NCBI GenBank assembly: GCA_964646505.1
Contig: CAZYEQ010000001.1
Location: forward strand, 1,713 to 45,064
DNA: 43,352 bases
Reading direction: 5' to 3'
From: an uncultured Gammaproteobacteria bacterium
GTDB taxonomy: Bacteria; Patescibacteriota; Patescibacteriia; Magasanikbacterales; UBA922
Shown: positions 16,411 to 37,380 of the stretch, piece by piece
Numbering within the stretch: position 1 is the stretch's first letter
Layout: every line of letters begins with the position of its first letter
The notes under the pieces: model-generated
The model's input: only the letters and a program-made list of their open reading frames with translations
What the model was told of the DNA's origin: nothing
Database searches by the model: none
Program-made: the position numbers and the translations under genes

Positions 16411-16420
16411 CCCGAGTACT

Positions 16421-18629: not shown

Positions 18630-19835
18630 CTATTGAACGATACGCGCGTTTCCATCAAGCTCTACCTGAGCAGCTGCGTTTCGCGCATCCACCTTGCGTT
18701 CAAGCTCGCGGGCGCGCTGTAAGGCACGTACTGGTAATATATTTGATTCTTTTCTCTCTTCAGGACGTGCGTTTACTGATTCAGCTGGGCGTCCTTCTGG
18801 CGGTTTTTCCATACGTTTTTCCATACGATCCTCTACCCGATCTTCCATCTTTTTTTCCATCATTTTCCCTTGAGCTCGATCGATCATTTGAAGGGTACGA
18901 TTGGCCGTCGTGTTACCATTTTTTGCTGCTTCCTTCAAACTCTCTTTCGCGTCTTTGTATTCTTCTCTTAAGCCCTCAAGAGTCGCTTTTCTCTCATGTT
19001 GCAAATCTTGCAATTCCGCCTTTGCTGCTTCGTCACCATTTTGTACTTTTTCCAGTAAATCACGGCGTTCGTCACGGAACTCTTTGGTTGCCCCAGCTTG
19101 AGCTTTCACACGCTCCTCAACTGTCTTTAAGTGCTCTTTTACAGCTTCAGGCATATTTGGATTTTGAATCGCACGCATGATACCTTGACTCTTTTCTTCA
19201 ATCATTGCGCGACGAGCTTCGAACGACTCTTTTGCGCTCTCAGGAAGCTTCGCTTCGATTCTGTCGAGGACCACGCCCAAGCGAACCTGACTGTCCGCGA
19301 TATTGCGTAGCGCCGCGGCCGCACGTACTCCGGGCGCGCTCTTGAGTGCGTCTTCCCTTTTTTCAGCATTACCAAGTAATGTTTGCGCGCGGTCAATCAA
19401 CGCCGCAGCGCGTGCTTTAACACTGTCATTTGCGCTCGACGCTAATATTTTTTCCGCAATTGCAATTCTCTGTTCAGCAAATACGGCTTCTTTTTCTGCC
19501 TTCTTTACAGGGTCAATCGTAGTGAGAAGCGAAAGACGTTCACGAAGACCAAAAAGAAATAGCCCGAACCTGTTTGGTGGTTTTTGGTTGACCTGCGTAT
19601 TGGCTGATGCTGTTTCAGCGGGTGCGACAGTGTCTTCGTTTACGGTAGATGTATCGGCTGACACAACAACTGTTTCGTCTGTCACCGCGGTTCCCTCGAC
19701 CTGAACAGGCTCCGTAACCACTTCAGTGGCCACCGTAACGCCAGTATCACTCGTTACCTCTACCGTTTGCGCGAATACAGGCGCGCTCAGCAGGGCACCG
19801 AGCATAAGTGACATGGTCACAACATGTTTCATCAT
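18630..19835 (-). CDS. secreted or anchored coiled-coil protein (possibly DUF5667-like), hypothetical
   Basis: Signal-like MMKHVVTMSLMLGALLSAPVFAQ, then a T/V/E-rich spacer, then long Ala/Glu/Lys/Arg helical segments. The family name is from memory only. Confidence 0.65.
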   Translation of the reverse strand: MMKHVVTMSLMLGALLSAPVFAQTVEVTSDTGVTVATEVVTEPVQVEGTAVTDETVVVSADTSTVNEDTVAPAETASANTQVNQKPPNRFGLFLFGLRERLSLLTTIDPVKKAEKEAVFAEQRIAIAEKILASSANDSVKARAAALIDRAQTLLGNAEKREDALKSAPGVRAAAALRNIADSQVRLGVVLDRIEAKLPESAKESFEARRAMIEEKSQGIMRAIQNPNMPEAVKEHLKTVEERVKAQAGATKEFRDERRDLLEKVQNGDEAAKAELQDLQHERKATLEGLREEYKDAKESLKEAAKNGNTTANRTLQMIDRAQGKMMEKKMEDRVEDRMEKRMEKPPEGRPAESVNARPEERKESNILPVRALQRARELERKVDARNAAAQVELDGNARIVQ

Positions 19836-19893
19836 AAAAAATGACATTAATATAGATAAAACGAGTATACACCCTATTGTTTTATACAACAAG

Positions 19894-20575: not shown

Positions 20576-20604
20576 AATATAGCACATTTTTGACCATTTG
20601 TCAA
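20576..20604 (-). promoter_or_regulatory. near-consensus promoter (TTGACA-N17-TATATT with TGn) firing leftwards
   Basis: Minus-strand read is TTGACAaatggtcaaaaatgtgcTATATT. It physically overlaps the xerC/D-like promoter on the other strand. Confidence 0.45.
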
Positions 20605-20618
20605 GTATGTCGTACAAT
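20590..20618 (+). promoter_or_regulatory. promoter for the xerC/D-like gene (TTGACC-N17-TACAAT), 7 nt from the ATG
   Basis: TTGACCatttgtcaagtatgtcgTACAATattttatATG. This spacing implies a leaderless transcript. Confidence 0.5.
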
Positions 20619-20625
20619 ATTTTAT

Positions 20626-21627
20626 ATGCAATTAGACACATATCGCACACAATTTTTAGAATATTTAGAAATTGAACGCAACCGCAGCGACAAAACGTTG
20701 CGTAATTATGATTTTTATTTAAAACGCTTTATCGAGTGGCTCGGCAATGCCTCACCCACCGCGATTACAGCCGAAAAAGTACGGCAGTACCGCTTGTGGC
20801 TCAATCGCTTGGTCGATGTGCACGGCGAACCCCTCAAAAAAAACACGCAAAACTACCATTTAATTGCCTTGCGCACGTTTTTAAAATATTTAGCAAAACG
20901 TGATATTAAAAGTTTATCGCCTGACAAAATTGAACTCATGAAAATGCCCGATCGCGAGGTGTCGTTTCTCGAAGGCACAGATTTACACCGCATTCTCGAA
21001 GCTCCGTTTACGGTACATACGTACAAAGCTCATGCCAACCCGCCATCAGACCCGAGTAAAGTAGCTGATGGTGAGCGCATCGCGTTTCGCGACAAGGCCA
21101 TGCTTGAATTGTTTTTTTCGACCGGACTACGTGTATCTGAACTCGCCAATTTGAAACGCGAACAAATTAATTTAAATAAAGAAGAGTGTACAGTGACCGG
21201 TAAGGGCGGAAAAACTCGGGTTGTTTTTTTGTCTGACCAAGCTCGCTACTGGTTAAAACAATACCTGGCGCGGCGCATGGACCCTAACCCGTATATGTTT
21301 GTTTCTCTTGATGGGCGTCGAAAGCACACCGTCATTGTGAAAGGGAAAAAAATTGAAAAAGAAGATGCGCCCCTTACGCCTCGCTCAATTGAACGACTCG
21401 TGCAAACCTATGCCAAAGCGGCTGGAATTACAAAACGGGTGACACCACACACCTTGCGCCACTCCTACGCCACGGATTTGCTCCAAAACGGGGCTGATAT
21501 ACGCAGTGTCCAAAGCATGCTTGGCCATTCGTCAATTCTTACCACGCAAATTTATACCCATATTACTGATAAAGAGTTACGAAACATTCATAAAAAATTT
21601 CATGGAAAGAAACGGTCAGACGATTGA
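20626..21627 (+). CDS. tyrosine site-specific recombinase, XerC/XerD-like
   Basis: The N-terminal SAM-like domain (FLEYLEIERNRSDKTLRNYDFYLKRF) is followed by the catalytic HTLRHSYATDLL and LGHSSILTTQIYTH. I used ATG 20626; the track start 20590 is a TTG inside the promoter. Confidence 0.9.
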   Translation: MQLDTYRTQFLEYLEIERNRSDKTLRNYDFYLKRFIEWLGNASPTAITAEKVRQYRLWLNRLVDVHGEPLKKNTQNYHLIALRTFLKYLAKRDIKSLSPDKIELMKMPDREVSFLEGTDLHRILEAPFTVHTYKAHANPPSDPSKVADGERIAFRDKAMLELFFSTGLRVSELANLKREQINLNKEECTVTGKGGKTRVVFLSDQARYWLKQYLARRMDPNPYMFVSLDGRRKHTVIVKGKKIEKEDAPLTPRSIERLVQTYAKAAGITKRVTPHTLRHSYATDLLQNGADIRSVQSMLGHSSILTTQIYTHITDKELRNIHKKFHGKKRSDD

Positions 21628-21994: not shown

Positions 21995-22010
21995 GTGGAG
22001 GGAAAACGAG

Positions 22011-22037
22011 AAAAAACACCGTTTTGCGGTGTTTTTT
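22011..22037 (+). terminator. rho-independent terminator after tRNA-His
   Basis: AAAAAACACCG-tttt-gCGGTGTTTTTT. Confidence 0.7.
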
Positions 22038-22051
22038 CTTTATGCTACTTG

Positions 22052-22060
22052 TGCTACAAT
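22052..22060 (+). promoter_or_regulatory. extended -10 element (TGcTACAAT) 11 nt before the glycosyltransferase ATG
   Basis: cttgTGCTACAATggcataaatatATG. There is no good -35 box and no SD. Confidence 0.35.
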
Positions 22061-22071
22061 GGCATAAATAT

Positions 22072-23199
22072 ATGATACATAAGCCAAAAAAAATTCTATG
22101 CGTGTCGGTTTCTGCTGGTTCAGGCCATGTGCGTGCTGCTGAGGCGCTTGTACAAGAGTGTAGAGATCAGGGCATTGAGGCCGAACACATCGACATGATG
22201 GACTATGTCCCAGGTCCGTATAAAGCAGCCATAGTACGAACATATTCTATTTTATTAAAGCAGGCGCCCAGCATGTGGGGCCTCTTATATGAGGGCACGA
22301 ATGCCCTATCAAGCAATTCGAGAATTGCAAAACTTTCAGAAAAACTAGCAGACATGAATGTCTCGCGATTTTTACAAAAAATAAAAGATATTGCTCCGAC
22401 CGATATTATTAGCACACACCTCCTCCCGGCAAAAATTATTGGCATGCATCGAACCGAACTTCACATTGAAACACCGGTTCATCTTGTGGTGACCGACTAT
22501 GACACGCATTCTTTTATTATTTCCCCCCATATCGACCACTACTTTGTAGCGACAAAAAAAATGAAATTAAAACTTATTGAGGCCGGTGTACCTGAAACAC
22601 ATGTATCACTTTCTGGTATTCCCATTGATAAAAAATTCTTTGCCCCATATTCGACAAAAGAACTCAAAAGAAAAGAGGGGTATAGTGAGAGTGACCCGCT
22701 ATTTCTTTTTTTAAGCGGGGGCGAGGGTTTAATTAACCCTACACGGGCAGTACAATCTCTTTTTCGATTACCCTACAAGGCTACTATTATTGCGATTGCT
22801 GGAAAAAACAAAGAGTTAGAACACGAATTACGTAGCCTTACGCCCCCAGAGCATATCAGGTACGAAAGCATTGGGTGGACCAATGAAATTGAAATATACA
22901 TGAGAATGGCTCAGGTCATCATCTCAAAACCCGGAGGGCTTACCACTACCGAATGCATTGTGCTCAAAAAACCGCTTATCGCTATTCAACCGATTCCTGG
23001 ACAAGAAGAAAAAAACACAGAGTTTATTCTCGAAATGGGGTATGGTGTGGTGGCACGATCTCTTTCGGATCTTATGTACTACTTGTCTGAAAAAAAAGAT
23101 ACGCTTGGTTGGGGATATGAAAAAGAAAAAAAGAATCCATTACAGAATGGAGCCAAACGTATTATTGAATCAGTACTTTCCTCTGAGCATTCCCATTAA
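22072..23199 (+). CDS. glycosyltransferase, MGDG-synthase/UgtP-like (GT28-type diacylglycerol glycosyltransferase)
   Basis: The N-terminus KILCVSVSAGSGHVRAAEAL and the C-terminal ISKPGGLTTTECIVLKKPLI...PGQEEKN match the MGDG_synth + Glyco_tran_28_C layout. I prefer start 22072, because track start 22024 lies inside the terminator. Confidence 0.75.
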   Translation: MIHKPKKILCVSVSAGSGHVRAAEALVQECRDQGIEAEHIDMMDYVPGPYKAAIVRTYSILLKQAPSMWGLLYEGTNALSSNSRIAKLSEKLADMNVSRFLQKIKDIAPTDIISTHLLPAKIIGMHRTELHIETPVHLVVTDYDTHSFIISPHIDHYFVATKKMKLKLIEAGVPETHVSLSGIPIDKKFFAPYSTKELKRKEGYSESDPLFLFLSGGEGLINPTRAVQSLFRLPYKATIIAIAGKNKELEHELRSLTPPEHIRYESIGWTNEIEIYMRMAQVIISKPGGLTTTECIVLKKPLIAIQPIPGQEEKNTEFILEMGYGVVARSLSDLMYYLSEKKDTLGWGYEKEKKNPLQNGAKRIIESVLSSEHSH

Positions 23200-23687
23200 G
23201 GGAAGAGTTGGCCGCGGGTGGGGTCGGGAGGAGGAATAGGCATTGCGTAATTTTGATCAATGCTAAACCCCTGCTCAGGCTCAGTAGCTCCTGTACTATT
23301 GAGTACAATTGTTGAAATAAATGTTGTGATACCCAGCGCTGACAATACGACGATAATACCAATAGTTGCTGTACGCAAAGTACTTTTTCCTGTATCCACC
23401 TTATCTTCGTCTCCGGCAGCAGTTAAAATCATCATGCCACCATAAAAAGCATACGCCACGAAAAGAGTGCCAATAATACCGAGGGCCCCTTGAACGATAT
23501 TCGCCACAACTGAGCGTGCTTCAAACACCTGTGTACCCACCCCAACCCCCCTTGACCCAAGAAAGGCAGCGGTTTGATTATCAATATGGGCGGTGGCAGG
23601 ATTCTGCGCCAGAACGTGAGCACTGGCATAAAAAAAACCGAACAAACACAGGCTCGCTGTATATAAAAGGAATAATTTTTTTTTCAT
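23196..23687 (-). CDS. VirB2/TrbC-like two-helix pilin paralog P1
   Basis: Signal MKKKLFLLYTASLCLFGFFYASAHVLAQ. Core GALGIIGTLFVAYAFYGGMMILTAAGDEDKVDTGKSTLRTATIGIIVVL. Pro-rich C-terminal tail. Confidence 0.7.
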   Translation of the reverse strand: MKKKLFLLYTASLCLFGFFYASAHVLAQNPATAHIDNQTAAFLGSRGVGVGTQVFEARSVVANIVQGALGIIGTLFVAYAFYGGMMILTAAGDEDKVDTGKSTLRTATIGIIVVLSALGITTFISTIVLNSTGATEPEQGFSIDQNYAMPIPPPDPTRGQLFP

Positions 23688-23699
23688 AGCGTAACGATA

Positions 23700-24233
23700 T
23701 TACGGTAGCCAATAGCACTCTCCTCTACTATCCAACACTTCTGCGTTTACACAACTTTGTTCATCGGTATACCGCGCACATGCATTGGTATCAAGAACTC
23801 CGTTGTATCTTGGCAAACAATGAATAACACTTGTTTGAGGAAGTGTGCTTTTAATAATTGTACTTGAGACGACGTTCACAATAGCGTATGAAGCAATAAC
23901 AATAAAAAATCCAATAACAGCACGCTTTATCGTATACATGGCTTTTTCGTATTTTTCATCTTCACCCCGAGCGGTAATAAGCCAAAAGCCACTCATGAGA
24001 ATAAGGATAAAAAAAATTGTTGCGAGAAGGCCGAGGAATAACTGAATTGCTTCTGTCGCGTACACTTGTGGGCTTCCGACTTCCACACTATAACTCGCAC
24101 TTCTTGCCCCACCATTCACCTGCGCCATAATTCTTTCGGAAAGAGATTGCGCACGCGCAATCGTTGGTACCGCTAACATCAAAAAAATAAGACTAGAAGC
24201 TACGGTTATTTTTTTGATAGAAAAAAACACCAT
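23700..24233 (-). CDS. VirB2/TrbC-like pilin paralog P2 with 4-Cys C-terminal tail
   Basis: Signal ...AVPTIARAQ. Core ILMSGFWLITARGEDEKYEKAMYTIKRAVIGFFIVIASYAI. Tail HCLPRYNGVLDTNACARYTDEQSCVNAEVLDSRGECYWLP. ATG 24233 lies 1 nt after the P3 stop. Confidence 0.75.
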   Translation of the reverse strand: MVFFSIKKITVASSLIFLMLAVPTIARAQSLSERIMAQVNGGARSASYSVEVGSPQVYATEAIQLFLGLLATIFFILILMSGFWLITARGEDEKYEKAMYTIKRAVIGFFIVIASYAIVNVVSSTIIKSTLPQTSVIHCLPRYNGVLDTNACARYTDEQSCVNAEVLDSRGECYWLP

Positions 24234-24234
24234 A

Positions 24235-24621
24235 TTACCCGGTTGTGCGCGCAAGAATAAGGGGCACTACAAATGCTGTGATACTGTACGCCCCCATAGT
24301 GATGATAAATCCAATAATAGCCGTGCGAATAATGTCAGTCGCTCGATCAACCTGCCCCTCATCGCCTCGAGCGGTCATCCATAAATACCCCGCGTAAATC
24401 ATGAGGATAAGAAAGATAACCCCGACAAATGAAAGTGCTCCTTTTACTAGCGTCCCAAGTGTTTCTGAAAAACTCGTTTCTGTAACCTGCGCGTAACCAG
24501 CGCTTCCCGCGGCCCGACCCGCTAAATCAAGCCCCAGATTTTGCGCAAAAGCGGTTGGCACAATCCAAAAAGATCCGAGTACCGCAGCGAGCATTATTTT
24601 CTTTACAAAAGAATGAAGCAT
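24235..24621 (-). CDS. VirB2/TrbC-like pilin paralog P3
   Basis: Signal MLHSFVKKIMLAAVLGSFWIVPTAFAQ. Core ILMIYAGYLWMTARGDEGQVDRATDIIRTAIIGFIITMGAYSI. Confidence 0.8.
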   Translation of the reverse strand: MLHSFVKKIMLAAVLGSFWIVPTAFAQNLGLDLAGRAAGSAGYAQVTETSFSETLGTLVKGALSFVGVIFLILMIYAGYLWMTARGDEGQVDRATDIIRTAIIGFIITMGAYSITAFVVPLILARTTG

Positions 24622-24622
24622 A

Positions 24623-24991
24623 TTATTGGGTACCAAAACGATTGAGCACAAGGAAGGTTATCGCGTAGGCCGACATCACGACCACAAGTCCAATAATACA
24701 CGTTTTCACGATACCAAGTGCTTTTTCTACCTGCCCCTCATCGCCTCGAGCGGTCATCCATAAATATCCCGCGTATACCATGAGAATAAGAAAGATGATA
24801 CCCACGAGGGTAAGGGCGGTTCCGATGACATTACCTGTAACCGTAGGCAAATCTGCTTGAGAAAAACCAGCACGCGTACCCAAACCCTGCAACCGCGTAC
24901 CTGATGTCTGCAAACTATCTTGTGCGTACGCTGTTCCCGCGTGCGCCAAAGCCAACAGAGTTATTACATACACATAGGAAATCTTCTTCAT
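24623..24991 (-). CDS. VirB2/TrbC-like pilin paralog P4
   Basis: Signal MKKISYVYVITLLALAHAGTAYAQ. Core ILMVYAGYLWMTARGDEGQVEKALGIVKTCIIGLVVVMSAYAI. Confidence 0.8.
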   Translation of the reverse strand: MKKISYVYVITLLALAHAGTAYAQDSLQTSGTRLQGLGTRAGFSQADLPTVTGNVIGTALTLVGIIFLILMVYAGYLWMTARGDEGQVEKALGIVKTCIIGLVVVMSAYAITFLVLNRFGTQ

Positions 24992-25000
24992 AAAATCACA

Positions 25001-25393
25001 TTAACGGCCTGATACAAAATTAGTAATAAAGAGCGAAACAGCGTACGCTGCCACTATTACTATAACACCTGAGACAGCAGCTGTAAAAGTTGCTTTGGCG
25101 GTTACCGCCCGATCCTCGTTCCCTCGATCAAGCATCCACATAAATCCGGCATACACCATGAGACAAAAAAAGATAAAGCCGACCAAACCTAAACCCACTT
25201 GAATAACTTGGATAGCAACAAGTACTGCGTCTTTGTTTGAAGAAAGTCCGGTAGGTTTTTGCGTCTCATCCAAAAAAAGACGGGGGTTGTTGATAAAATT
25301 TCTATTCTCAGTCTGCGCAAGCAGTGGACCCGCAAAAAAGGTAGGGAGTAGAGAGAGTGAGAGAAAAAGAATATTGTAGAGATATTTTTTCAT
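25001..25393 (-). CDS. VirB2/TrbC-like pilin paralog P5
   Basis: Signal MKKYLYNILFLSLSLLPTFFAGPLLAQ. Core CLMVYAGFMWMLDRGNEDRAVTAKATFTAAVSGVIVIVAAYAV. Confidence 0.8.
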   Translation of the reverse strand: MKKYLYNILFLSLSLLPTFFAGPLLAQTENRNFINNPRLFLDETQKPTGLSSNKDAVLVAIQVIQVGLGLVGFIFFCLMVYAGFMWMLDRGNEDRAVTAKATFTAAVSGVIVIVAAYAVSLFITNFVSGR

Positions 25394-25397
25394 ACCA

Positions 25398-26048
25398 TTA
25401 CCGGCAAACACCACCTACTGCGCCTGACTGGTTTGGTATACTGATGTCTGCGCAACCCCACAAAAGACCGTTACTTGAATCACATATTGCCTGACAATCC
25501 TGAGAAGCGCTTGCTTCTGCCACCCATCTTCCAGCATTAACGTTACTATTCCCTCGATCTCGATATACACAACATCTCACCCCACCCGAAGCAGTACCCC
25601 CACCTGCACCAGGCACAGGTGGCATTGCGGGCATAGTTGCCGCAGGCGGACGAGAAGGATCCTGGAGCGCCAAACTTGTGAACAAGAAACTGGTAATGGT
25701 GTATGATGCCATAATGATGACCATACCAATAGCGCCTGCCGTAATTGTACCTATGGCACGACTTGTTTGATCCTCATTACCGCGCGCGGTCATCCACAAA
25801 AACCCACCGTAAAGCATGAGAATAAAAAAAATAATTCCAACAAATGAGAGCGCGGTTCCAATAATTGTTCCGATAAATGATTGAATGTCATTTGACTGCC
25901 CGAGTCCTTGGTTTAACTTAGCGGCACCGGCAGTAGCATTTAAGCCATATGTGAGGTCGCCTTGTGAAAACACCGGCTGAAACGCTAAGAAAGCGCTGAG
26001 GCTTAAAAAAGCGACAAATATCATCGTTTTTTTCATACGTAACTTCAT
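25398..26048 (-). CDS. VirB2/TrbC-like pilin paralog P6 with Pro-rich linker and 6-Cys C-terminal module
   Basis: Core ILMLYGGFLWMTARGNEDQTSRAIGTITAGAIGMVIIMASYTI. Tail ...PPAATMPAMPPVPGAGGG...RCCVYRDRG...DCQAICDSSNGLLWGCADIS...GVCR. Confidence 0.8.
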   Translation of the reverse strand: MKLRMKKTMIFVAFLSLSAFLAFQPVFSQGDLTYGLNATAGAAKLNQGLGQSNDIQSFIGTIIGTALSFVGIIFFILMLYGGFLWMTARGNEDQTSRAIGTITAGAIGMVIIMASYTITSFLFTSLALQDPSRPPAATMPAMPPVPGAGGGTASGGVRCCVYRDRGNSNVNAGRWVAEASASQDCQAICDSSNGLLWGCADISIPNQSGAVGGVCR

Positions 26049-26049
26049 A

Positions 26050-26598
26050 TTACGTGCAGTTATTTAAGTAACACACCTGCCCACGTGGGCAGTCCGCGTT
26101 GACCGTGCACGATTGAAAGTATCCGGGAGGTGGTGCTTCTAAACTTGTCGTTGAATCAGGAGAGGCAGTACTATCACCCTTACGTACACTAAGCGCATCA
26201 AACACAAGATTAGTGAGTGCGTATGATGCTAAAATCACAATGAGCCCAGCAATAGCACCTTTTAAAATCTCAACGGATTGCGCGGCTTTTGCTTCATTTC
26301 CTCGGTCAAACATCCACAAGATCCCAGCATAAAGCGTGAGAAGAAAAAAGATAATCCCAAGGAGCGATAAAACATTACCAATCACTTTTCCGATAAGCGT
26401 AGGAAGAAATACTGTTCTTTCCGGAGTTGACCCATCAATTTGTAGCCCTGCGCCACCCGCGAACTTCGAGGCCCCACCGCGCAAAAGCTCCACCGCCTTA
26501 TTCTCTTGCGCCAAGACCTTTGGTGCAAACAAAAAAAAGCTGAGCACAGCAAGTATACCCAGAGAAAACGTGGCGAGAGTTTTTATCAGTCGCGCCAT
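26050..26598 (-). CDS. VirB2/TrbC-like pilin paralog P7 with 4-Cys C-terminal knot
   Basis: Signal ...FAPKVLAQ. Core LLTLYAGILWMFDRGNEAKAAQSVEILKGAIAGLIVILASYAL. Tail SCTVNADCPRGQVCYLNNCT. Confidence 0.8.
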   Translation of the reverse strand: MARLIKTLATFSLGILAVLSFFLFAPKVLAQENKAVELLRGGASKFAGGAGLQIDGSTPERTVFLPTLIGKVIGNVLSLLGIIFFLLTLYAGILWMFDRGNEAKAAQSVEILKGAIAGLIVILASYALTNLVFDALSVRKGDSTASPDSTTSLEAPPPGYFQSCTVNADCPRGQVCYLNNCT

Positions 26599-26604
26599 AA
26601 TCGG

Positions 26605-27030
26605 TTAACGAAATTGAATCAAACTAGTTGGGTAATTTCGACCGGTAGAACTTCGGTATACAGCGGAAAGCGCAAAGCGACTGATGGCATACGAGGTCAT
26701 CACAATCACAAGGCCGAGCACGGCTGCCGAAAGCGTTTGTTTTGCCTTGTCTATTTTATCTTCATTTCCAGCCGAGGTGAGCCACAAGAAGCCTGCGTAA
26801 AACACAAGTATTGTTGTAACAATACCAAGGAGACCAAGAATAACGTCGATGATACGAGCGACGATCACAACAGGAGAAGTGCTTGGGAGCCCTGATGAGC
26901 CAAGATAGCCAACACCAACAATATCACCTTGAGCATATACACCTTCTGCTGTGAAACAAAAAAAAGAAACGAGAAAAAGAGCGGTGAGCAAAATCCGTTT
27001 CACTGATGTTTTAGTATGATGACTGGGCAT
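26605..27030 (-). CDS. VirB2/TrbC-like pilin paralog P8
   Basis: I chose ATG 27030 (MPSHHTKTSVKRILLTALFLVSFFCFTAEGVYAQ). Core ILVFYAGFLWLTSAGNEDKIDKAKQTLSAAVLGLVIVMTSYAI. The track's extra 39 N-terminal codons run through a hairpin-rich spacer. Confidence 0.75.
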   Translation of the reverse strand: MPSHHTKTSVKRILLTALFLVSFFCFTAEGVYAQGDIVGVGYLGSSGLPSTSPVVIVARIIDVILGLLGIVTTILVFYAGFLWLTSAGNEDKIDKAKQTLSAAVLGLVIVMTSYAISRFALSAVYRSSTGRNYPTSLIQFR

Positions 27031-27094
27031 ATAGGTGATTACCTTGTGTGTATAAAAAATGGCACACACAAATGAACCACGGTATCTTTGTCCC

Positions 27095-27119
27095 AAAGGG
27101 GTGGAGACCCACCCCTTTT
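27095..27119 (-). terminator. hairpin (possible attenuating terminator) after P9
   Basis: GGGGTGG-nnnn-CCACCCC hairpin, 15 nt after the P9 stop. Only 3 U residues follow it on the minus strand. A second 8-bp hairpin TTGTGTGT...ACACACAA follows. Confidence 0.4.
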
Positions 27120-27133
27120 GACAAAATACAAGA

Positions 27134-27556
27134 TTACTGCAAGTCACTGTATGCTCCGCCAGTAACTCCTGTTTGCGCAGCTAAACGAGTCAAGACAAAG
27201 CGGGCGATTGCCCAAGCGCTCATAATAATTGCGAGACCGATAATACCTGAAACGATCAAACCACGGGCTTCTTCGATTTTATCTTCACTACCGCCTGCGG
27301 TCATCCATTTCGCACCACCCATAAGGATGATAACGACTGCTACGATACCAAGAAGGCTTAAACCGACATTGATGATACCACCAATGGTTTGTTCTAGAGG
27401 TTGAGCTCCTAAATTTGAAGCTTCATTAAAACTTCGTACTCCCAATGGATCATCGGTAGTTGCAAAAGCTGGAAGTGCTACCACTGAGAAAGCGAGTACT
27501 GCGATTGTTCCAAGCACAAATTTGTACTTTGAAACATTAGACAATGCGTAATTCAT
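27134..27556 (-). CDS. VirB2/TrbC-like pilin paralog P9 (candidate major subunit)
   Basis: Signal ...VVALPAFAT. Core IILMGGAKWMTAGGSEDKIEEARGLIVSGIIGLAIIMSAWAI. It has no Cys. It is the only array member with a long upstream spacer, a strong SD (GAAAGGGGGTGAGTACATG) and a downstream hairpin. Confidence 0.8.
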   Translation of the reverse strand: MNYALSNVSKYKFVLGTIAVLAFSVVALPAFATTDDPLGVRSFNEASNLGAQPLEQTIGGIINVGLSLLGIVAVVIILMGGAKWMTAGGSEDKIEEARGLIVSGIIGLAIIMSAWAIARFVLTRLAAQTGVTGGAYSDLQ

Positions 27557-27612
27557 GTACTCACCCCCTTTCGCGTTGTAGTTACCATAAGAAATAACAT
27601 AAAGTTCGACAT
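27553..27612 (-). CDS. candidate 19-codon upstream ORF overlapping the P9 start (ATGA)
   Basis: AAGGAGcatcATG precedes MSNFMLFLMVTTTRKGVST. Its TGA stop overlaps the P9 ATG. Confidence 0.25.
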   Translation of the reverse strand: MSNFMLFLMVTTTRKGVST

Positions 27613-27636
27613 GATGCTCCTTTTTCTCCTCACCAC

Positions 27637-28257
27637 TTAGCCGGAACTGATGGCTTTGAAGACTATAGAAAGTATAGCATAACTTGAAAAAATAATACAG
27701 ATTCCGATAGCAGCGTAGGCCATAGTATGCGTTCCCTTCGCTACCCGATCTTCATTTCCAGCCGAGGTGAGCCATAAAAACCCACCGTAAATAAACACAA
27801 GTAATGTTATCGCCCCGATAATCCCAAGTGCATTAGCGATCAACCGCCCTAATAGTCCTGGAAGAATTTTGGTAATAGCAGCGTCAGTGTCGGTGCCGAG
27901 CGGATTTTGCAAAGGAATAACAATGAGCTTTGATGATGGTTTAATGTAATTAATCTCATAGCCACTCGCGGGACACTCTTGCGCTGGCTCATCAAGTGTA
28001 CACTCTGCCCATCGGTCAACGCCCTCATGTTCTTGGCACAATTTTTGACACTGCTCTTCTTTGACACTCGTTTCGGCGGTTGTATTTACGGTAAGCGGGG
28101 TGCAGCCGAGTCGAGTTGACTGAGAACCTGACGAAGCACCAGTTGACGGTTGACGTGCGGTAATCGTGTATGTACACACCGCGGCGTTTACCCCGTAAAA
28201 AGGGAAAAATACTAATCCTACGAGCAAGATAATTTGTATATATAGTATGCGTTTCAT
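27637..28257 (-). CDS. VirB2/TrbC-like pilin paralog P10 with N-terminal 6-Cys ectodomain
   Basis: Signal ...FYGVNAA. A ~110-aa domain with 6 Cys (VCTYT...GCTPL...EQCQKLCQEHE...AECTLDEPAQECP) precedes the core LVFIYGGFLWLTSAGNEDRVAKGTHTMAYAAIGICIIFSSYAI. Confidence 0.8.
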   Translation of the reverse strand: MKRILYIQIILLVGLVFFPFYGVNAAVCTYTITARQPSTGASSGSQSTRLGCTPLTVNTTAETSVKEEQCQKLCQEHEGVDRWAECTLDEPAQECPASGYEINYIKPSSKLIVIPLQNPLGTDTDAAITKILPGLLGRLIANALGIIGAITLLVFIYGGFLWLTSAGNEDRVAKGTHTMAYAAIGICIIFSSYAILSIVFKAISSG

Positions 28258-28267
28258 ACGGCTTTAA

Positions 28268-29245
28268 CTAAAACGTTGCATTAATACCTCCACGAAATAC
28301 AGAAGGTACACCAAGAAGCGCATAGACGTACCCAATCAGCAAATAGGCACCAAAAGAAATAAATATACCAATAATCGCGGCGATAAAAATTGACCTGCCT
28401 GTTGCAAATCGATCACTATTTCCAAATGACACAATCATAACCACACCACCATAGACAAAAAAGGCAAACGAGACAGAACCGATAATGGTAAAAAGAAGGT
28501 TGACGATCTTAAAGGCAAGATTTTCTAAATCCTTGATACTTCGACATGTTCCCTGAATAGCACAATCTGGCAATATGTCACTTTCCGTACCAACCACACG
28601 CTGCGCGGCGGCGGCTTCAGCTGCCTGAACACATCGTCCTCCACTTTGATCAGCGAGCCACCTGCATACCCTACTCCCTGCCACACTGCCATCTGATGCG
28701 GGCCCACAAAGGCCCGGGCTAGTAATTTTTTGGCACACACTTAAATCGTCACGACCGTAACAGGTTTGAGCGAGCAAAAAACATCCGGGACGAGTAATAC
28801 ATGTGGTCACAGAGAGTCCGACACAACCATTGCTTCTGTTTAACTCCTGAATGCACAGAGATGAGCCGACGCACGAAGTGGGACGTTCATAAGAAACTAC
28901 CTCTGCCTTGCATGTATATGAACTTGGAAAAAGTGATGCAATGGCCGCATATGACTGCGCCCCCAAAGGAATAAGTATCGGGGTGGCCGCTACTCCGGCG
29001 TTGCTTAGTGTAAAACAGTCCACTTTTCGATAATTAAAATAATCCGAACCGCTTATGTCAACAGTCTGTCTCCTAGGAGTTGTATTGCAGTAATTTGATA
29101 TACGACAGCCCGTTTCCTTTGTCTCTTTATCCACTTCAACACGCACACAACAGTCTTCTCCGGCCGCGTGCACACTGCGAAATGGGGTGACAAGTGCCAT
29201 AACGGTTATGGCAATCAATACTGTTTTAATAAAAAACCGAGTCAT
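28268..29245 (-). CDS. VirB2/TrbC-like pilin paralog P11 with large N-terminal 18-Cys ectodomain
   Basis: Signal ...FRSVHAA. A ~225-aa domain with 18 Cys precedes the degenerate core FFVYGGVVMIVSFGNSDRFATGRSIFIAAIIGIFISFGAYLL. Confidence 0.8.
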   Translation of the reverse strand: MTRFFIKTVLIAITVMALVTPFRSVHAAGEDCCVRVEVDKETKETGCRISNYCNTTPRRQTVDISGSDYFNYRKVDCFTLSNAGVAATPILIPLGAQSYAAIASLFPSSYTCKAEVVSYERPTSCVGSSLCIQELNRSNGCVGLSVTTCITRPGCFLLAQTCYGRDDLSVCQKITSPGLCGPASDGSVAGSRVCRWLADQSGGRCVQAAEAAAAQRVVGTESDILPDCAIQGTCRSIKDLENLAFKIVNLLFTIIGSVSFAFFVYGGVVMIVSFGNSDRFATGRSIFIAAIIGIFISFGAYLLIGYVYALLGVPSVFRGGINATF

Positions 29246-29246
29246 A

Positions 29247-30623
29247 CTAGTAAGTTTGTTGAGTCACCTGAGCCGCTCGAACCAAAGCATTCGCGTCACG
29301 AACCGCCTGCTGTTCATCATCTTGAAGCGGTGCTAGCGATTGATCGGCCATAGCCGCAAAGGCTTTTCGCACCACATCGATATTACTTCCTTTATACCAG
29401 TTTTTAGCCACAAGCACTTGGCTCGCAAACGGTGCGAGCAGTGGATTGTTTAATTGCGCGGTCACCTGCGTACGAAGGGGGCTTGGTTGATTGGTGGTAG
29501 CTGTATACGTTGCCACATTTTGTGGCAATGTCATAAAACGGATAAAATCCCAAGCTTCATTTTGGTGCTTTGACTTCTTGAGGACGGTCTCAACCCAATA
29601 ATTAGCCACATTAACCGGAAGTGTGTCTGGTAGTTGTGGTGCTGTTGTGACCTCAAGATTCATTTGTGGCGCGCGAGCACGGATACGAGGAGCATCGTAT
29701 GCGTATCCAAGATAAAAAACTGTTTTTCCCTGCACAAATGATTCCAACGCGTTTGGTAATGCAGCATTCCAACTATAAATCTCTTTACTGTCTCTCGCGA
29801 AATCAGTATAAAAACGAAGGACTTGCATGGCTGGGTGATTTTCTAATGCTCGATTTTGCAAGCCTTCGGCAAATGTAATTTGACGACCAGATGCAATTGG
29901 TACATTTGTTTGGTACATGAGAAAAGAGAGAATGTCATACGCATTATCAATATTTGCACCCGTCCCCATGGCAATACCGGACTGAACAATATTTCCGTCA
30001 GCATCAAATTTTGTGGCTTTTTTCACTGCCTCAAAAAGTTCAGGCCAGGTTTTTGGTGGCAGTGGTACACCGGCCGCGTCAAGAAGATCTTTATTATAAT
30101 AAAGAGCCAAAGTGTCAAGCGCTAGAGGAAGGCCATATATTTTTCCATCAACAACAACATCATCTGATACGGTTTGCACATAGGCGTTTTGCATATAACT
30201 TTGAGTCGGAAGTGGCACCTGTTCGACAGTCACCTGTGTCTCCTGTGCGTACTTACCAACCACCTGCACATTAGCCATGGAAATGCTCGCGGGCATTGGT
30301 GTGAGACGGGACATTTTTCCACGAAGCGCGGTATTTTGCACAGATACAATATCAGGCCCTGCGTCTTCTGCAAGCGCATTTAAAAGCACACCCTCAAACT
30401 CGTCAAATCGCAAACGGCGAATATCGACGGTGACGTAAGGACGAATTTTTTTATATTCATCTGCTATGCGGCGTAGCTCATCGACATTATTAAATACGGT
30501 CCAATACTGAATACGAACTGGTCGAATCGCTTGCGTTTCCTCTTGACTAAGCCCCTTGCAGCCCAAACCACTGGTAAGCAAAAAAAGGCTGACAAGAAAA
30601 AGAGAAATAAAACGTTTTAACAT
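29247..30623 (-). CDS. extracellular solute-binding lipoprotein (ABC-type SBP family 1-like), orphan
   Basis: 458 aa. The lipobox-like signal is LLTSGLGC. Typical SBP_bac_1 features include IQYWTVFNN..., GPDIVSV and YGLPLALDTLALYYNKDLL. No permease or ATPase gene is adjacent. Confidence 0.75.
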   Translation of the reverse strand: MLKRFISLFLVSLFLLTSGLGCKGLSQEETQAIRPVRIQYWTVFNNVDELRRIADEYKKIRPYVTVDIRRLRFDEFEGVLLNALAEDAGPDIVSVQNTALRGKMSRLTPMPASISMANVQVVGKYAQETQVTVEQVPLPTQSYMQNAYVQTVSDDVVVDGKIYGLPLALDTLALYYNKDLLDAAGVPLPPKTWPELFEAVKKATKFDADGNIVQSGIAMGTGANIDNAYDILSFLMYQTNVPIASGRQITFAEGLQNRALENHPAMQVLRFYTDFARDSKEIYSWNAALPNALESFVQGKTVFYLGYAYDAPRIRARAPQMNLEVTTAPQLPDTLPVNVANYWVETVLKKSKHQNEAWDFIRFMTLPQNVATYTATTNQPSPLRTQVTAQLNNPLLAPFASQVLVAKNWYKGSNIDVVRKAFAAMADQSLAPLQDDEQQAVRDANALVRAAQVTQQTY

Positions 30624-30626
30624 ACA

Positions 30627-31298
30627 TTACCCAAATATACTGAAAAGAAAATCGACAATTGCGTAGCTGGTGAGAATAACAACGATACCGAGCGCCGACC
30701 ATACCATGGTTTTAATGGCCTTTGAGACCTGTTCGCTGTTCCCCCGTGAAGTCATCCACACAAACCCCCCATACACAAACATAGCCAAGGCAATGGATCC
30801 AATTACCCCAATAATCGCTTTGGCCAGTCGGGCAATACCAATGGTTACATTACTAAACCCAAACTTATTTAACCCGCCAACCTGACTTGGGACATATGGA
30901 CCACGAGTTGCTTTTTTCTTTTCGGCAGAAGCCACATTCTCTGAATCAATACATGCTTTAATGAGTGCGGCTTTGCATTCCTCTTTATTTGCCCACGACC
31001 CTGGATTCTGGGGGCGAGCATCACATACTTGATATGTTGCCTGACTGTATTCTGTCTTACATTTTTGAGTCACAACATCAGCGTCTGAAGTGTCAGTTGC
31101 GACCGTTTCTGGTCCATCATTTGCATTATTTGTGGGCGCGACCGTAGCAGTTCCTGCCGGAGACACAGAAGAAGATCCAGCCGGCGGAATAGTCGATGTG
31201 TCCACTCGACCGGCCTGGGCAAGTGCCACATCAGATGGCACTATCGTGGCCGCGAATGAACAAAGTATGAGGGTAGCAAAAAAAATATTCTTATTCAT
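30627..31298 (-). CDS. VirB2/TrbC-like pilin paralog P12 with S/T/P-rich spacer and 4-Cys N-terminal module
   Basis: Signal MNKNIFFATLILCSFAATIVPSDVALAQ. An S/T/P-rich stretch is followed by QKCKTEY...QVCDARP...EECKAALIKAC and then the core AMFVYGGFVWMTSRGNSEQVSKAIKTMVWSALGIVVILTSYAI. Confidence 0.8.
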   Translation of the reverse strand: MNKNIFFATLILCSFAATIVPSDVALAQAGRVDTSTIPPAGSSSVSPAGTATVAPTNNANDGPETVATDTSDADVVTQKCKTEYSQATYQVCDARPQNPGSWANKEECKAALIKACIDSENVASAEKKKATRGPYVPSQVGGLNKFGFSNVTIGIARLAKAIIGVIGSIALAMFVYGGFVWMTSRGNSEQVSKAIKTMVWSALGIVVILTSYAIVDFLFSIFG

Positions 31299-32166
31299 AC
31301 TGTGCAACAAACTGAGTAATGGTTTCCCTCATATCAGTATCCTTCATTGCAAAATGGATCGCGGTCTTAAGAAGTGCCAGTTTATTTCCTGTGTCAAAAT
31401 ACTGCCCTTCGTATTCGTACGCTAATAATTTTTTCTTTTTTGCAAGCGCGTGTACCGCATCAGTCAACCAAATTTCCCCCCCGTGACTCACCTTTACCGC
31501 CTCAAGGTAGGGCCAAATATCTTTGGTTAAGATATAACGCATACCTCCAACAATTAACCCCTCCGGCGACACGTCTTTTTCAGGTGGTTTTTCCTTCACA
31601 TCACTCACGCGGTAGGTTTTTTTGGTACCTATTTTTTTTCCATAAATATTACCGTACAGGGTCATTTGTTTTTTATCGGATAAACGCTGTACACCAATGA
31701 CAGGTGCATTTTCTTTACGGAATGCACGTAACAATTGAGCCGTTACTGGTGTTTTTGCGTCAATAATGCTGTCTCCATCTGAAAACGCAAACGGTTCATT
31801 CCCAACAAATTCTTTCGCGCATAACAAGGCGTGTCCATTGCCTAAAGGTTCTGATTGACGCGTGTAAAAAAACCGAACTTTTTGACTTAACTCTACGAGA
31901 GGCTTAAGGAGCGCGCCTTTTCCTTTTTTTTCCACATATTCTTCAAACGCTCGGTCGCGATCAAAATGATCTTCAATAGCGCGTTTTTGTGAACTGGTCA
32001 CAAACATAATTTCTGTAATGCCGCTTGCGGCCATCTCTTCAACGATAAACTGAAGAACCGGTTTGTCTAAAACCGGCAGCATTTCCTTAGGCATAGCTTT
32101 GGTCGCTGGTAAAAAACGAGTTCCAAGACCAGCGACAACAATAACTCCCTTACGGACTTTTTGCAT
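31291..32166 (-). CDS. galU: UTP--glucose-1-phosphate uridylyltransferase
   Basis: VVAGLGTRFLPATKAMPKEMLPVLDKPVLQFIVEE, plus the ...GGEIWLTDA motif. I prefer start 32166. Confidence 0.9.
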   Translation of the reverse strand: MQKVRKGVIVVAGLGTRFLPATKAMPKEMLPVLDKPVLQFIVEEMAASGITEIMFVTSSQKRAIEDHFDRDRAFEEYVEKKGKGALLKPLVELSQKVRFFYTRQSEPLGNGHALLCAKEFVGNEPFAFSDGDSIIDAKTPVTAQLLRAFRKENAPVIGVQRLSDKKQMTLYGNIYGKKIGTKKTYRVSDVKEKPPEKDVSPEGLIVGGMRYILTKDIWPYLEAVKVSHGGEIWLTDAVHALAKKKKLLAYEYEGQYFDTGNKLALLKTAIHFAMKDTDMRETITQFVAQYE

Positions 32167-32211
32167 ACGCACACAGTATATCACGACGGTGGACAAAAAG
32201 AAACAGGGTTT

Positions 32212-33561
32212 TTATTCATCCTCTTCCCAGCTTAAGAGTTCGTACACCCCTGATGTTGGAAAACCCGGTGGAGGGTAAAATCGTAAATTTCCATCGTAAC
32301 TATGGTTGGTATTTACGAACCCTGACACGACCGTTCCGGCTCCGTTAACCCACTTCCATCCCCCTCCGTTAAAAGCAATTTGGGCTCCCGAAAATACCAA
32401 GTTGGTCCGAACGGCATTTGTACCAGAATAGTAAGGTCGGAAAATGCGTCCGTTTTGGGCAATGGCCGCGGCGTTAATCGTCGTGGTATCTGGGACATTT
32501 TTTGGTACCACAATATCACGCTCGGCAATAAGCCCGAGCACGTCGTCACCGGCCTGTGTTTCGTACATTAAGTTTCCTGAAATAATAATATCGCGATCAG
32601 CTGCCCCTTGAAAATTTGACGCGCCAATTGTCACCCGACCATCAACAATGCCGTCAACCCACACGTTATCTTCAACAAACAACGCTCCATTTCCAGGCAT
32701 ATTATATATACCAAAGTACGTTTGACCATTGTAGTCATACGCTACACCATCATAGGTGATACGACTATTTACACGGCGGAGCTCAAAGCGCGCGTCACTA
32801 CGAAAAGTGATATGCCATCCCTCACGACCCGAAGACAAAATTCGCACCCCGCCATTACTCGCTGACGTTTGTAAATTCGCTAAGTCGACGGTAATTGCAT
32901 TAAAGTCACTTGCCGGTACCGGGTAGGAAAAAAAGTTCGTTGGCCCGCCTGCTCCCCACACTCCAGGGTGCACTCCTGTACCGTCACCAGGATCGTAGGT
33001 GTCTCGTGAAGAAGTGATAATCGCATCAGTCGTACCATCAAACCGAATACCCCCATTCGAATGAACAGGACCATGAACCACGGTAGTTGAACTAAATCGC
33101 ATGTTTGCGTTTTGCAAAAAAGTATAATCCGCCAAAGCCGGAAACCCGAGTCGTACAGAAAGCGTTCGTTGTGTATTCGGAGACCGCACGCTATATCCCG
33201 TTGAGCGCACCTCTACGATCGTCGAACCAACAAGAGGCTGTGAGATATTAAGTGAATAGTGTCCTATTGTTTTCCCATCTTTATCACGAAAAGGCAAAAT
33301 ATAAGGGCCGGTGCTTGTTGTTCCATTTTGTAAATCATTAGGATAGTGTGCTAAGTGCCAGCGATAATAATTAATACCCGCCTCAGCGATTTGAAATGCG
33401 AGGTCACGATCGTGTTTACGTTCGGACGCGCGGTGCTCAAATAGGGTGTAGCTGGCCACACCAGTTACAAGCATGGTCGTAAGAAGTGACCCAAACACAA
33501 GGAGATACATGAGAATTACCCCTCGTGTATCTTTCTTGCCCTTCCGAAGAAAAAAAGACAT
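32212..33561 (-). CDS. large pilus-associated protein with PilX-like N-terminal anchor, hypothetical
   Basis: MSFFLRKGKKDTRGVILMYLLVFGSLLTTMLVTGVASYTLF, then a ~400-aa Gly/Asn/Thr-rich beta-looking domain. It immediately follows two pseudopilin genes. Confidence 0.55.
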   Translation of the reverse strand: MSFFLRKGKKDTRGVILMYLLVFGSLLTTMLVTGVASYTLFEHRASERKHDRDLAFQIAEAGINYYRWHLAHYPNDLQNGTTSTGPYILPFRDKDGKTIGHYSLNISQPLVGSTIVEVRSTGYSVRSPNTQRTLSVRLGFPALADYTFLQNANMRFSSTTVVHGPVHSNGGIRFDGTTDAIITSSRDTYDPGDGTGVHPGVWGAGGPTNFFSYPVPASDFNAITVDLANLQTSASNGGVRILSSGREGWHITFRSDARFELRRVNSRITYDGVAYDYNGQTYFGIYNMPGNGALFVEDNVWVDGIVDGRVTIGASNFQGAADRDIIISGNLMYETQAGDDVLGLIAERDIVVPKNVPDTTTINAAAIAQNGRIFRPYYSGTNAVRTNLVFSGAQIAFNGGGWKWVNGAGTVVSGFVNTNHSYDGNLRFYPPPGFPTSGVYELLSWEEDE

Positions 33562-33562
33562 A

Positions 33563-35970: not shown

Positions 35971-35982
35971 TTAGGTGCCGAT

Positions 35983-35991
35983 AGTATATCA
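35983..35991 (-). promoter_or_regulatory. extended -10 element (TGaTATACT) 12 nt before the pseudopilin ATG
   Basis: Minus-strand read is gaacTGTGATATACTatcggcacctaaATG. There is no clear -35 box. Confidence 0.3.
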
Positions 35992-36025
35992 CAGTTCGCA
36001 CGGCGCCGTCTTTTTTGCCATATAC

Positions 36026-36053
36026 AAAAAAATCCCCGCTTAGGGGATTTTTT
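36026..36053 (-). terminator. rho-independent terminator after rpsR
   Basis: AAAAAATCCCC-nnnnn-GGGGATTTTTT, symmetric and therefore bidirectional in principle. Confidence 0.7.
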
Positions 36054-36054
36054 G

Positions 36055-36728: not shown

Positions 36729-36746
36729 ACGAGTGATTTAGATGAA

Positions 36747-37265: not shown

Positions 37266-37351
37266 AACTAATGATGACGGGCTATGGGCCACAGAGTTCG
37301 ACCAACTATGGGCATAGACCACTAAGCGCTCACATGTCGTAATTGAGGCGT

Positions 37352-37380
37352 ACTGTAGCAAAAGTCTACACCATTGTCAA
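37352..37380 (-). promoter_or_regulatory. promoter for rpsF-ssb-rpsR (TTGACA-N17-TACAGT)
   Basis: Minus-strand read is TTGACAatggtgtagacttttgcTACAGT, leaving a leader of about 80 nt. Confidence 0.5.

Follow-up and report, generated by a model that had tools for sequence, protein, structure and literature searches.

What would twelve adjacent genes for small, pilin-like membrane proteins do at a locus that encodes no secretion machinery beside them? The question is raised by an array on the minus strand (23196-31310) of a 43,352-nucleotide stretch of DNA, hereafter the window, from contig CAZYEQ010000001.1 (assembly GCA_964646505.1). The array comprises 12 co-directional open reading frames (ORFs) of the PF18895 type, encoding proteins of 122-325 aa (P1-P12), and is broken by a single gene for a solute-binding protein (SBP). 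It is an ABY1/Magasanikbacteria example of the VirB2-like pilin arrays typical of Patescibacteria, a kind already described. We favour, with a probability of about 0.6, the reading that this PF18895 array feeds a type IV secretion system (T4SS)-like surface structure in its ABY1/Magasanikbacteria form. An initial annotation, made from the letters of the window, had proposed an undescribed VirB2/TrbC-like system. The VirB2-like part of that proposal is supported, but "undescribed" fails, since divergent VirB2-like pilin arrays were published in Patescibacteria in 2023-2025 and the family is curated by Pfam. The genes of the array, with their PF18895 scores, are as follows.

P1, 23196-23687, minus strand: 163 aa, 37.3 bits; signal peptide ending VLA↓Q; C-terminal tail short and Cys-free.
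P2, 23700-24254, minus strand: ORF of 184 aa, likely start M8 at 24233, 33.8 bits; hairpin core followed by a C-terminal extension of 47 aa with 4 Cys.
P3, 24235-24651, minus strand: ORF of 138 aa, likely start M11 at 24621, 30.1 bits; minimal pilin.
P4, 24623-24991, minus strand: 122 aa, 40.7 bits; minimal pilin.
P5, 25001-25414, minus strand: ORF of 137 aa, likely start M8 at 25393, 16.3 bits; minimal pilin.
P6, 25398-26048, minus strand: 216 aa, 27.5 bits; core plus a C-terminal extension of 86 aa with 6 Cys.
P7, 26050-26598, minus strand: 182 aa, 24.7 bits; core plus a C-terminal extension of 42 aa with 4 Cys.
P8, 26605-27147, minus strand: ORF of 180 aa, start probably M40 at 27030, giving 141 aa, 29.9 bits; minimal pilin with a weak TrbC match (E 0.016).
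P9, 27134-27556, minus strand: 140 aa, 39.1 bits; minimal pilin.
P10, 27637-28257, minus strand: 206 aa, 33.5 bits; N-terminal ectodomain of 106 aa with 6 Cys between signal peptide and core.
P11, 28268-29245, minus strand: 325 aa, 27.5 bits; N-terminal ectodomain of 212 aa with 18 Cys.
SBP, 29247-30623, minus strand: 458 aa, SBP_bac_1/SBP_bac_8; lies between P11 and P12.
P12, 30627-31310, minus strand: ORF of 227 aa, likely start M5 at 31298, 34.7 bits, TrbC E 0.039; N-terminal ectodomain of 123 aa with 4 Cys.

All 12 ORFs lie where the initial annotation had put them, with the SBP gene as the interruption. Its description of a shared architecture also holds, as every protein has one hydrophobic segment at the N-terminus and two more in the core, and each of the 12 signal-peptide end motifs that it quoted is present. 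Its spacers of 0-10 nt are close to what we measured at nine of the 11 junctions (1-12 nt), but the other two are 80 and 103 nt long; start codons for these lengths were chosen to agree with the deposited gene calls. The protein deposited for P11 (P0121, 310 aa) begins 15 codons downstream of the start of the 325-aa ORF. The longer ORF is more plausible, because beginning at the deposited start would cut off the charged n-region of the signal peptide and some of its h-region. A promoter/terminator scan of 22000-38000 gave results at background (28 sites against 26.2 expected and 14 against 16.9, respectively) and indicated no operon boundaries in this region.

The twelve paralogs share a core that aligns in MAFFT over ~76 gap-free columns, with the loop motif YGGFLWMTARGNED, the consensus ...L-G-L-x-G-x-I-F...Y-G-G-F-L-W-M-T-A-R-G-N-E-D...A-Y-A-I and three invariant Gly residues. 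Pairwise identity in this core averages 31% (range 17-52%, the closest pair being P3 and P4), falling to a mean of 26% and a maximum of 43% over the full length. Every paralog matches Pfam PF18895 (T4SS_pilin), with E-values from 2.5e-10 to 0.011, so that their resemblance is far above chance. Ten of the 12 (27.5-40.7 bits) pass the gathering threshold of 26.6 bits; P7 (24.7) and P5 (16.3) fall under it, and both align in register with the other paralogs and are positioned inside the array. PF18895 is likewise carried by all 875 homologs of the array proteins retrieved by word index. A search with the core profile at E<=1e-3 returned 68,211 cluster representatives (clustering at 50% identity), 20,995 of which reach E<=1e-10. 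At the DNA level, repeats among the paralogs are confined to the core motif (61-78% identical). An 82-nt tract spanning the loop motif is 90% identical between P3 (24347-24425) and P4 (24726-24807), which could reflect gene conversion or an old duplication; each of the two genes has its own ortholog in the relative GCA_964597575.1.

The resemblance to VirB2 was examined at several levels. The initial annotation had pointed to the T4SS_pilin and TrbC/VirB2 models, and both respond: T4SS_pilin (PF18895) in all 12 proteins, and TrbC (PF04956) weakly in P8 and P12, which align in register but below threshold (15.8 and 14.6 bits; cut-off 27.9). One family member, P0001, bears both PF18895 and PF04956 assignments. 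As a reference set, a plasmid collection was probed with Ti-plasmid VirB2, and seven annotated VirB2/TrbC proteins, each encoded by a gene flanked by virB1 and virB3, were aligned. Comparison of this set with the window family by hhalign gave an E-value of 1.3e-4 and a probability of 54% over 59 columns. The match spans helix 1, the loop and helix 2, placing GFLWMTARG opposite GISWMFGRAS and yielding the common motif G-x-x-W-M-x-x-R. An AlphaFold2 (AF2) model of P4, built from 124 sequences, is a helical hairpin of residues 48-79 and 85-120 (pLDDT 81, core >90).

Like the array proteins, VirB2/TrbC proteins (PF04956, for example VirB2 of the Agrobacterium Ti plasmid) have a signal peptide, two helices joined by a short loop and an N-out/C-out membrane topology, and G-x-x-W-M-x-x-R closes helix 1 in both. 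The array proteins differ in a loop that is ~7 residues longer and acidic (NED/DEG), in their monoderm host, in the lack of adjacent virB1 and virB3, and in the large Cys-rich ectodomains on half of the paralogs. Neither cyclisation nor a pilus is in evidence for them. A further relative is NF045849, which NCBIfam describes as the Mbov_0395 family "pilin-like conjugal transfer protein" of Mycoplasma integrative and conjugative elements (ICEs). It matches P4, P6 and P12 at E ~1e-7 (~30 bits, under the 40-bit family cut-off), its 80-residue hairpin profile aligning across their whole core. The Mycoplasma host is a wall-less monoderm with MPF-FATA-type conjugation, and its gene is a single one on a mobile element, whereas the array here comprises 12 chromosomal genes. 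This match suggests that VirB2-like hairpins occur in MPF-FATA-type monoderm systems; VirB2-like pilins have been treated as absent from the MPF-FATA class (PMC12102498).

Signal peptides were called from hydrophobicity, the -3/-1 rule and cysteine statistics. All 12 predicted sites have A or S at -1 and A, V or L at -3, which strongly indicates that each gene encodes a Sec-type preprotein. The mature part is, with equal strength, indicated to be a two-helix membrane hairpin whose loop, W-M-T-A-R-G-N-E-D, faces the cytoplasm. None of the 12 matches N_methyl (PF07963), the class III G↓FxxxE signal found on the neighbouring minor pilins. Six of the paralogs extend beyond the hairpin, P2, P6 and P7 at the C-terminus and P10, P11 and P12 at the N-terminus, and the Cys counts of these extensions are all even (4, 6, 4, 6, 18 and 4, respectively). 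Across 675 family ORFs from 81 loci, the number of cysteines is even in 294 Cys-bearing extensions and odd in 32 (binomial p=3e-54), and no Cys was found in the loop. The signal peptide and the pairing of cysteines to either side of the hairpin place both termini outside the cytoplasm and the conserved loop inside it. An N-out/C-out topology, the same as in VirB2 and TraA, is therefore strongly indicated.

Half of the paralogs thus appear, on strong indications, to carry fast-evolving, disulfide-rich ectodomains at the extended terminus. Compared with their orthologs in GCA_964597575.1, the cores are 73% identical, while signal peptides reach 26%, N-extensions 38% and C-extensions 30%. In the P11 ectodomain, 16 of the 18 Cys are invariant among the four orthologs found, which are its only detectable homologs; an AF2 model from these four (pLDDT 59, pTM 0.34) was too poor for a fold search. 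Going by the structure of the F-pilus and the display of epitopes on F-pilin termini, both termini would be on the outer surface of a VirB2-type filament. Since the termini of the array proteins are extracytoplasmic and would point outwards in such a filament, the ectodomains would be displayed in either the filament or the membrane state.

Related loci were collected with the 124-sequence alignment, giving 80 loci of ~20 kb. The NCBI contig JACCDT010506868.1 (GCA_013565695.1) is 99.7% identical to the window over 8.3 kb, and named homologs of the array proteins come from "Candidatus Magasanikbacteria" and other ABY1 or Paceibacteria metagenome-assembled genomes (MAGs). About 38 of the related loci (L004, L006, L009 and ~35 more) belong to MAG records (TPA assemblies) titled "uncultured Gammaproteobacteria bacterium", among them the chromosome OZ246405.1. 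These titles look wrong, as gene content and homology indicate ABY1 Patescibacteria.

Pilin genes are co-directional within each of 81 loci, and an HMM of the window core detects up to 15 pilin-domain ORFs in a 20-kb locus, with 11-13 being common. The initial annotation had taken the copy number as unusual, but 41 of the 81 related loci hold 9-15 such genes and twelve is therefore ordinary for this lineage. In GCA_964597575.1, the same locus is found in the same gene order on a 913,817-bp contig, with one-to-one orthologs of all 12 paralogs and of SBP (41-76% identity; SBP 73%). Most of the 43 loci with at least nine pilins keep the window paralogs collinear, as judged by reciprocal best hits (Spearman rho -1.00, the sign being negative solely from the opposite orientation of the compared loci). 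P9 is the most frequent reciprocal best hit (40 of the 43 loci), and the ortholog of P1 is R13 in locus L003. Collinear orthologs and DNA identity limited to the core motif (61-78%) strongly indicate that the paralogs form an ancient, ordered and non-interchangeable set rather than a recent expansion.

How does the array compare with those already published? PF18895 is curated by Pfam as "Type IV secretion system pilin". In Southlakia epibionticum, a run of predicted pilins inside an essential T4SS cluster was itself reported by Wang 2023 to be essential (PMC10633639). Quinonero-Coronel 2025 applied PF18895 and PF04956 to 3,035 Patescibacteria genomes and described 441 arrays of 2-11 genes with a mean identity of 25% (PMC12102498); VirB2-like pilins were found in 1,948 assemblies also holding VirB4, and near virB4 in 1,135 of them. 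A 2025 review of T4SSs discusses the "pilin array" and regards the pilus as yet to be demonstrated (PMC12857230). The array studied here fits the published definition, consisting of at least two PF18895/PF04956 genes of low identity, in tandem or one non-pilin gene apart. With the Patescibacteria arrays on record (the T4SS locus of S. epibionticum ML1, the TM7x "Sec secreted array" and the 441 arrays) it shares family, phylum and layout, being tandem and co-directional with, as is sometimes seen, one non-pilin gene between. Divergence is also similar, the published paralogs being ~25% identical with a maximum near 54%, against 26% and 43% here (52% in the core).

The array departs from the published ones in several respects. 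It has twelve genes, and relatives up to 15, as opposed to 2-11. The S. epibionticum array lies within a T4SS cluster, whereas no virB4 was found within 10 kb of the array in any of the 80 loci here. Microgenomatia and Saccharimonadia are named as the groups in which the published arrays abound most, while the present one is from ABY1. Its conserved neighbours are genes for type IV pilus (T4P) minor pilins, GalU, the orphan SBP and a glycosyltransferase (GT), which PMC12102498 does not mention. The VirB2 arrays of Bartonella and Anaplasma (PMC12102498) are, as here, tandem amplified and divergent in a host-associated bacterium, but they are thought to serve antigenic variation, in contrast to the stable, same-position orthologs seen here across species. 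The features that mark this lineage are therefore larger arrays, uncoupling from virB4, the T4P/GalU/SBP/GT context, ordered orthogroups and ectodomains with even Cys counts; conserved paralog identity and order, and the even-Cys extension domains, go beyond the publications cited here.

Where, then, is the secretion machinery? Pfam scans covered nearly all non-nested window ORFs of at least 100 aa, including every gene-sized one outside the array, and show no VirB4, VirB6, VirB8-11 or VirD4 family, in agreement with the initial annotation. Pfam was run on the Walker A-containing ORFs of 450 aa or more in the 80 related loci, apart from one pair. They proved to be FtsH, IF2, FtsK, UvrA, ABC-F, SMC, EngA or PilB, with one lacking a Pfam match; HflX (364 aa) was also identified among the scanned ORFs. 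The array accordingly lacks the published feature of a nearby virB4 (within 20 coding sequences; PMC12102498 Fig. S9 ring 5, S. epibionticum). As T4SS genes do not lie near these arrays, the link to VirB4 in ABY1 rests on homology and on Saccharimonadia.

The initial annotation had counted the missing machinery as unusual, but nine of 11 related array-bearing genomes (L005, L007, L018, L019, L022, L025, L051, L062 and L071) are scored VirB4-positive in Table S1 of PMC12102498, with the genes located elsewhere; T4SS loci of ABY1 sit with comF, recG and radA (PMC12102498). For the source organism, the sequence read comprised the 43-kb window and ~5 kb beyond it (Logan contig L001), and the most economical reading is that its machinery, too, is encoded elsewhere in the genome. 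A T4SS elsewhere, which the initial annotation had named as grounds for rejecting its proposal, thus probably accounts for the array; this is probably a chromosomal, non-conjugative T4SS-like system and not an ICE.

Under the favoured reading, each preprotein would be inserted by Sec and then cleaved by signal peptidase I (SPI), and the hairpins, to judge from homology and the literature, would collect in the membrane as a pool. An MPF-FATA-like T4SS of conjugative descent, encoded at another site in the chromosome (VirB4, TrsD, VirB3/PrgI, VirB6), would extract hairpins from this pool and assemble them into a heteromeric structure on the cell surface, pilus-like or spanning the envelope, for contact with the host. 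The short paralogs might form its shaft or body, with the ectodomain-bearing paralogs providing surfaces that bind the host cell. More speculatively, the orphan SBP could sense or bind a host glycan, and GalU and GT could supply a lipid partner, by analogy with the stoichiometric phospholipid of F and T pili.

The genes around the array bear on both this reading and its rivals. The following are the closest.

GT, 22024-23199, plus strand: MGDG_synth/GT28-type glycosyltransferase, convergent with P1, the ends overlapping by 4 nt.
GalU, 31291-32196, minus strand: UTP-glucose-1-phosphate uridylyltransferase-like (TIGR01099, E 2e-82), directly upstream of P12.
Three T4P minor pilins, 32212-35970, minus strand: 460 aa (PilX_N), and 204 aa and 598 aa (N_methyl prepilin motif).
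T4P assembly genes, 37436-41374, plus strand: PilB (T2SSE), PilC (T2SSF) and PilM, which are context and not part of the array.

These assignments bear out the initial annotation's report that the array is contiguous with T4P genes. The minor pilin genes, galU and the array are co-directional and tightly packed, and the order of PilB, PilC and PilM is repeated on L001, which has an identical PilB. The linkage of array, T4P genes and galU, whose conservation the initial annotation had proposed surveying, proved consistent in strand: GalU occurs in 42 of the 80 related loci, on the pilin strand in 42/42, and in every locus with a long enough flank the minor pilins are found upstream of GalU, with 39/39 homologs on the pilin strand. 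SBP homologs lie beside or inside the array in 47 of the 80 loci, again always on the pilin strand (49/49). SBP itself is an orphan of carbohydrate type, with no ABC permease or ATPase gene in the 43-kb window. GLGC is conserved after its hydrophobic segment and, judging from its sequence, it is probably a lipoprotein. GT has a homolog in 28 of the 80 loci, on the strand opposite to the pilins for 28 of 29 homologs, and its best NCBIfam match is diglucosyl-diacylglycerol synthase NF010135 (E 1.5e-53, under the equivalog cut-off). The context of T4P minor pilins, GalU, SBP, array and convergent GT recurs in dozens of species, and these neighbours go unmentioned in PMC12102498. On either side of the array stand GalU, the producer of UDP-glucose, and GT, its would-be consumer; one sub-group has GT within the array itself. 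The pilins might conceivably be linked to a glycolipid. The minor pilins, GalU and SBP are probably co-expressed with the array as cell-surface or host-contact functions. The T4P pilins next door are, like the array proteins, small secreted or membrane-anchored filament subunits, adjacent to the array and co-directional with it, but they are marked by a class III N_methyl signal and a single helix at the N-terminus, whereas the array proteins have a Sec/SPI-type signal and a two-helix hairpin.

Two kinds of unusual family member were seen outside the window. The core profile matches best to single polypeptides in which a lone signal peptide is followed by 2-16 hairpins in tandem; P0126 (555 aa, 6 hairpins), P0161 (1775 aa, 16 hairpins) and P0135 look like natural "polypilins" and not gene-call fusions. 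They bear on the question of whether the hairpins polymerise or form fixed bundles. In addition, four loci (L061:3852-6008, L071:5212-12018, L065:9923-11830 and L082:9893-11722) encode large surface proteins of 529-2268 aa, each with a single PF18895-like hairpin and with neither an array nor T4SS genes nearby. The L061 protein (718 aa) has a Big_5 Ig-like domain and the L071 protein reaches 2268 aa. This suggests that a PF18895-like hairpin can serve as a membrane or filament anchor for big ectodomains.

Several observations weigh against the T4SS reading. No T4SS gene was found in the 43-kb window, nor VirB4 within ~10 kb of 80 arrays, and two of the 11 related draft MAGs (L028 and L079) are VirB4-negative (PMC12102498 Table S1). 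The conserved co-directional linkage is to T4P genes and not T4SS genes. A VirB2-type filament has never been observed in any Patescibacterium (PMC12857230). The hhalign probability is just 54%, and for a hydrophobic hairpin. A Foldseek search of the P4 model against the PDB gave a best E-value of 1.6 and nothing at E<=0.001, although the bare hairpin fold carries too little information for this search to be informative. Lastly, twelve distinct and strictly conserved paralogs, and fusions of 2-16 hairpins, suit a fixed hetero-oligomer at least equally well. It is possible that the proteins form a T4SS-independent envelope complex, a fixed hetero-oligomeric platform or ring that anchors variable disulfide-rich ectodomains without VirB4-driven polymerisation and that is co-expressed, and might work, with the T4P minor pilins, SBP and the UDP-glucose/glycolipid enzymes. 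The absence of a VirB4-like ATPase within 10 kb (0/80), the same-strand neighbours (GalU 42/42, SBP 49/49, minor pilins 39/39), the paralog identity and order kept across species, the natural fusions and the giant hairpin-anchored proteins of L061 (718 aa, Big_5) and L071 (2268 aa) are all in keeping with it. Such a complex is harder to reconcile with the probable homology of the family to VirB2/TrbC and to the Mycoplasma ICE conjugation protein, with the Saccharimonadia array inside an essential T4SS cluster (PMC10633639), with the VirB4-positive status of most related genomes, and with six of the 12 paralogs having nothing to display; nor could the array proteins be T4P substrates, since a class III prepilin signal (G↓FxxxE) is missing from them.

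Another suggestion for Patescibacteria (PMC12102498), proposed also for Bartonella and Anaplasma, is that the paralogs are alternative major pilins that vary antigens or host range, and the strong divergence of the paralogs and the 30-38% identity at exposed termini between species, against 73% in the core, would be expected of them. We consider this unlikely here and rejected it, because collinear, one-to-one orthology of individual paralogs across dozens of species-level genomes fits it poorly. Recent duplications or conversion tracts are likewise absent save the 82-nt stretch of P3/P4, co-directional genes with 1-12 nt at nine of 11 junctions suggest co-expression and not switching, and the S. 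epibionticum pilin genes are reported to be essential (PMC10633639). It is very improbable that these are unrelated small membrane proteins, such as holin-like proteins or small transporter subunits, pilin-like only in the composition of a hydrophobic hairpin. The Foldseek search did return only generic helical hairpins, with no VirB2 or TraA chain among the 50 hits listed, and Pfam gave matches to DctQ, Cyt_bd_oxida_II and others, but these were sub-threshold noise. A PDB sequence search with the core profile gave only designer "Pizza" repeat proteins, spurious hits from summed weak repeats. Such an identity is contradicted by the consistent PF18895 matches (12/12), a loop motif in register with genuine VirB2, cleavable signal peptides in all 12 proteins, extracytoplasmic Cys-rich domains on half of them, and a context of chromosomal housekeeping genes rather than phage or transporter genes; a scan found no relatives of the array proteins in viral contigs. 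A holin or small-transporter identity was therefore rejected.

A more specific proposal, which we advance as doubtful, is that the array encodes a heteromeric envelope organelle of ~12 parts, each non-redundant and conserved in its order, which would have no genetic coupling to virB4 and might be assembled from protein and glycolipid together. In this organelle, the pilins would be co-expressed with the T4P minor pilins, GalU and SBP, beside a diglucosyl-diacylglycerol-synthase-like enzyme. If true, it would display disulfide-rich, fast-evolving ectodomains for host recognition, and the lipid analogy would be the 1:1 pilin-phospholipid stoichiometry of F and T pili.

The T4SS reading matters beyond this locus. 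Much of bacterial diversity falls within the Patescibacteria, whose members seem mostly to live attached to other cells. Few gene sets have been shown to be indispensable to this way of life, and the T4SS-like system with its pilin array is one of them, in a single species. The comparative results sharpen two questions, whether a VirB2-type pilus is really built in a monoderm bacterium and why many divergent pilins would be needed. That twelve orthogroups are stable and keep a fixed order favours a heteromeric structure of defined parts over antigenic variation, the even-Cys ectodomains fix the topology and mark the paralogs likely to contact the host, and the conserved T4P/GalU/SBP/GT link provides concrete candidates for co-function.

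By Pfam, the genes of the window outside the array are T4P and housekeeping genes, the latter including rpsA, gyrA, ruvA, ileS, rpe, trxB, xerC, ssb and rpsF. An ATP-grasp_4/LAL_C2 gene (14299-15597) and a RimK-like gene (16373-17335) flank a 269-aa ORF without a Pfam match (15601-16410), and this group (14299-17335) may be a peptide-ligase or modification cluster; its first ATP-grasp gene is also present in GCA_964597575.1. Genes for a DUF5667 protein and a XerC/D-type recombinase lie close together (18630-19892 and 20590-21627, respectively). The two are a few genes apart in L003, and several related loci repeat this pairing on the downstream side of the array.

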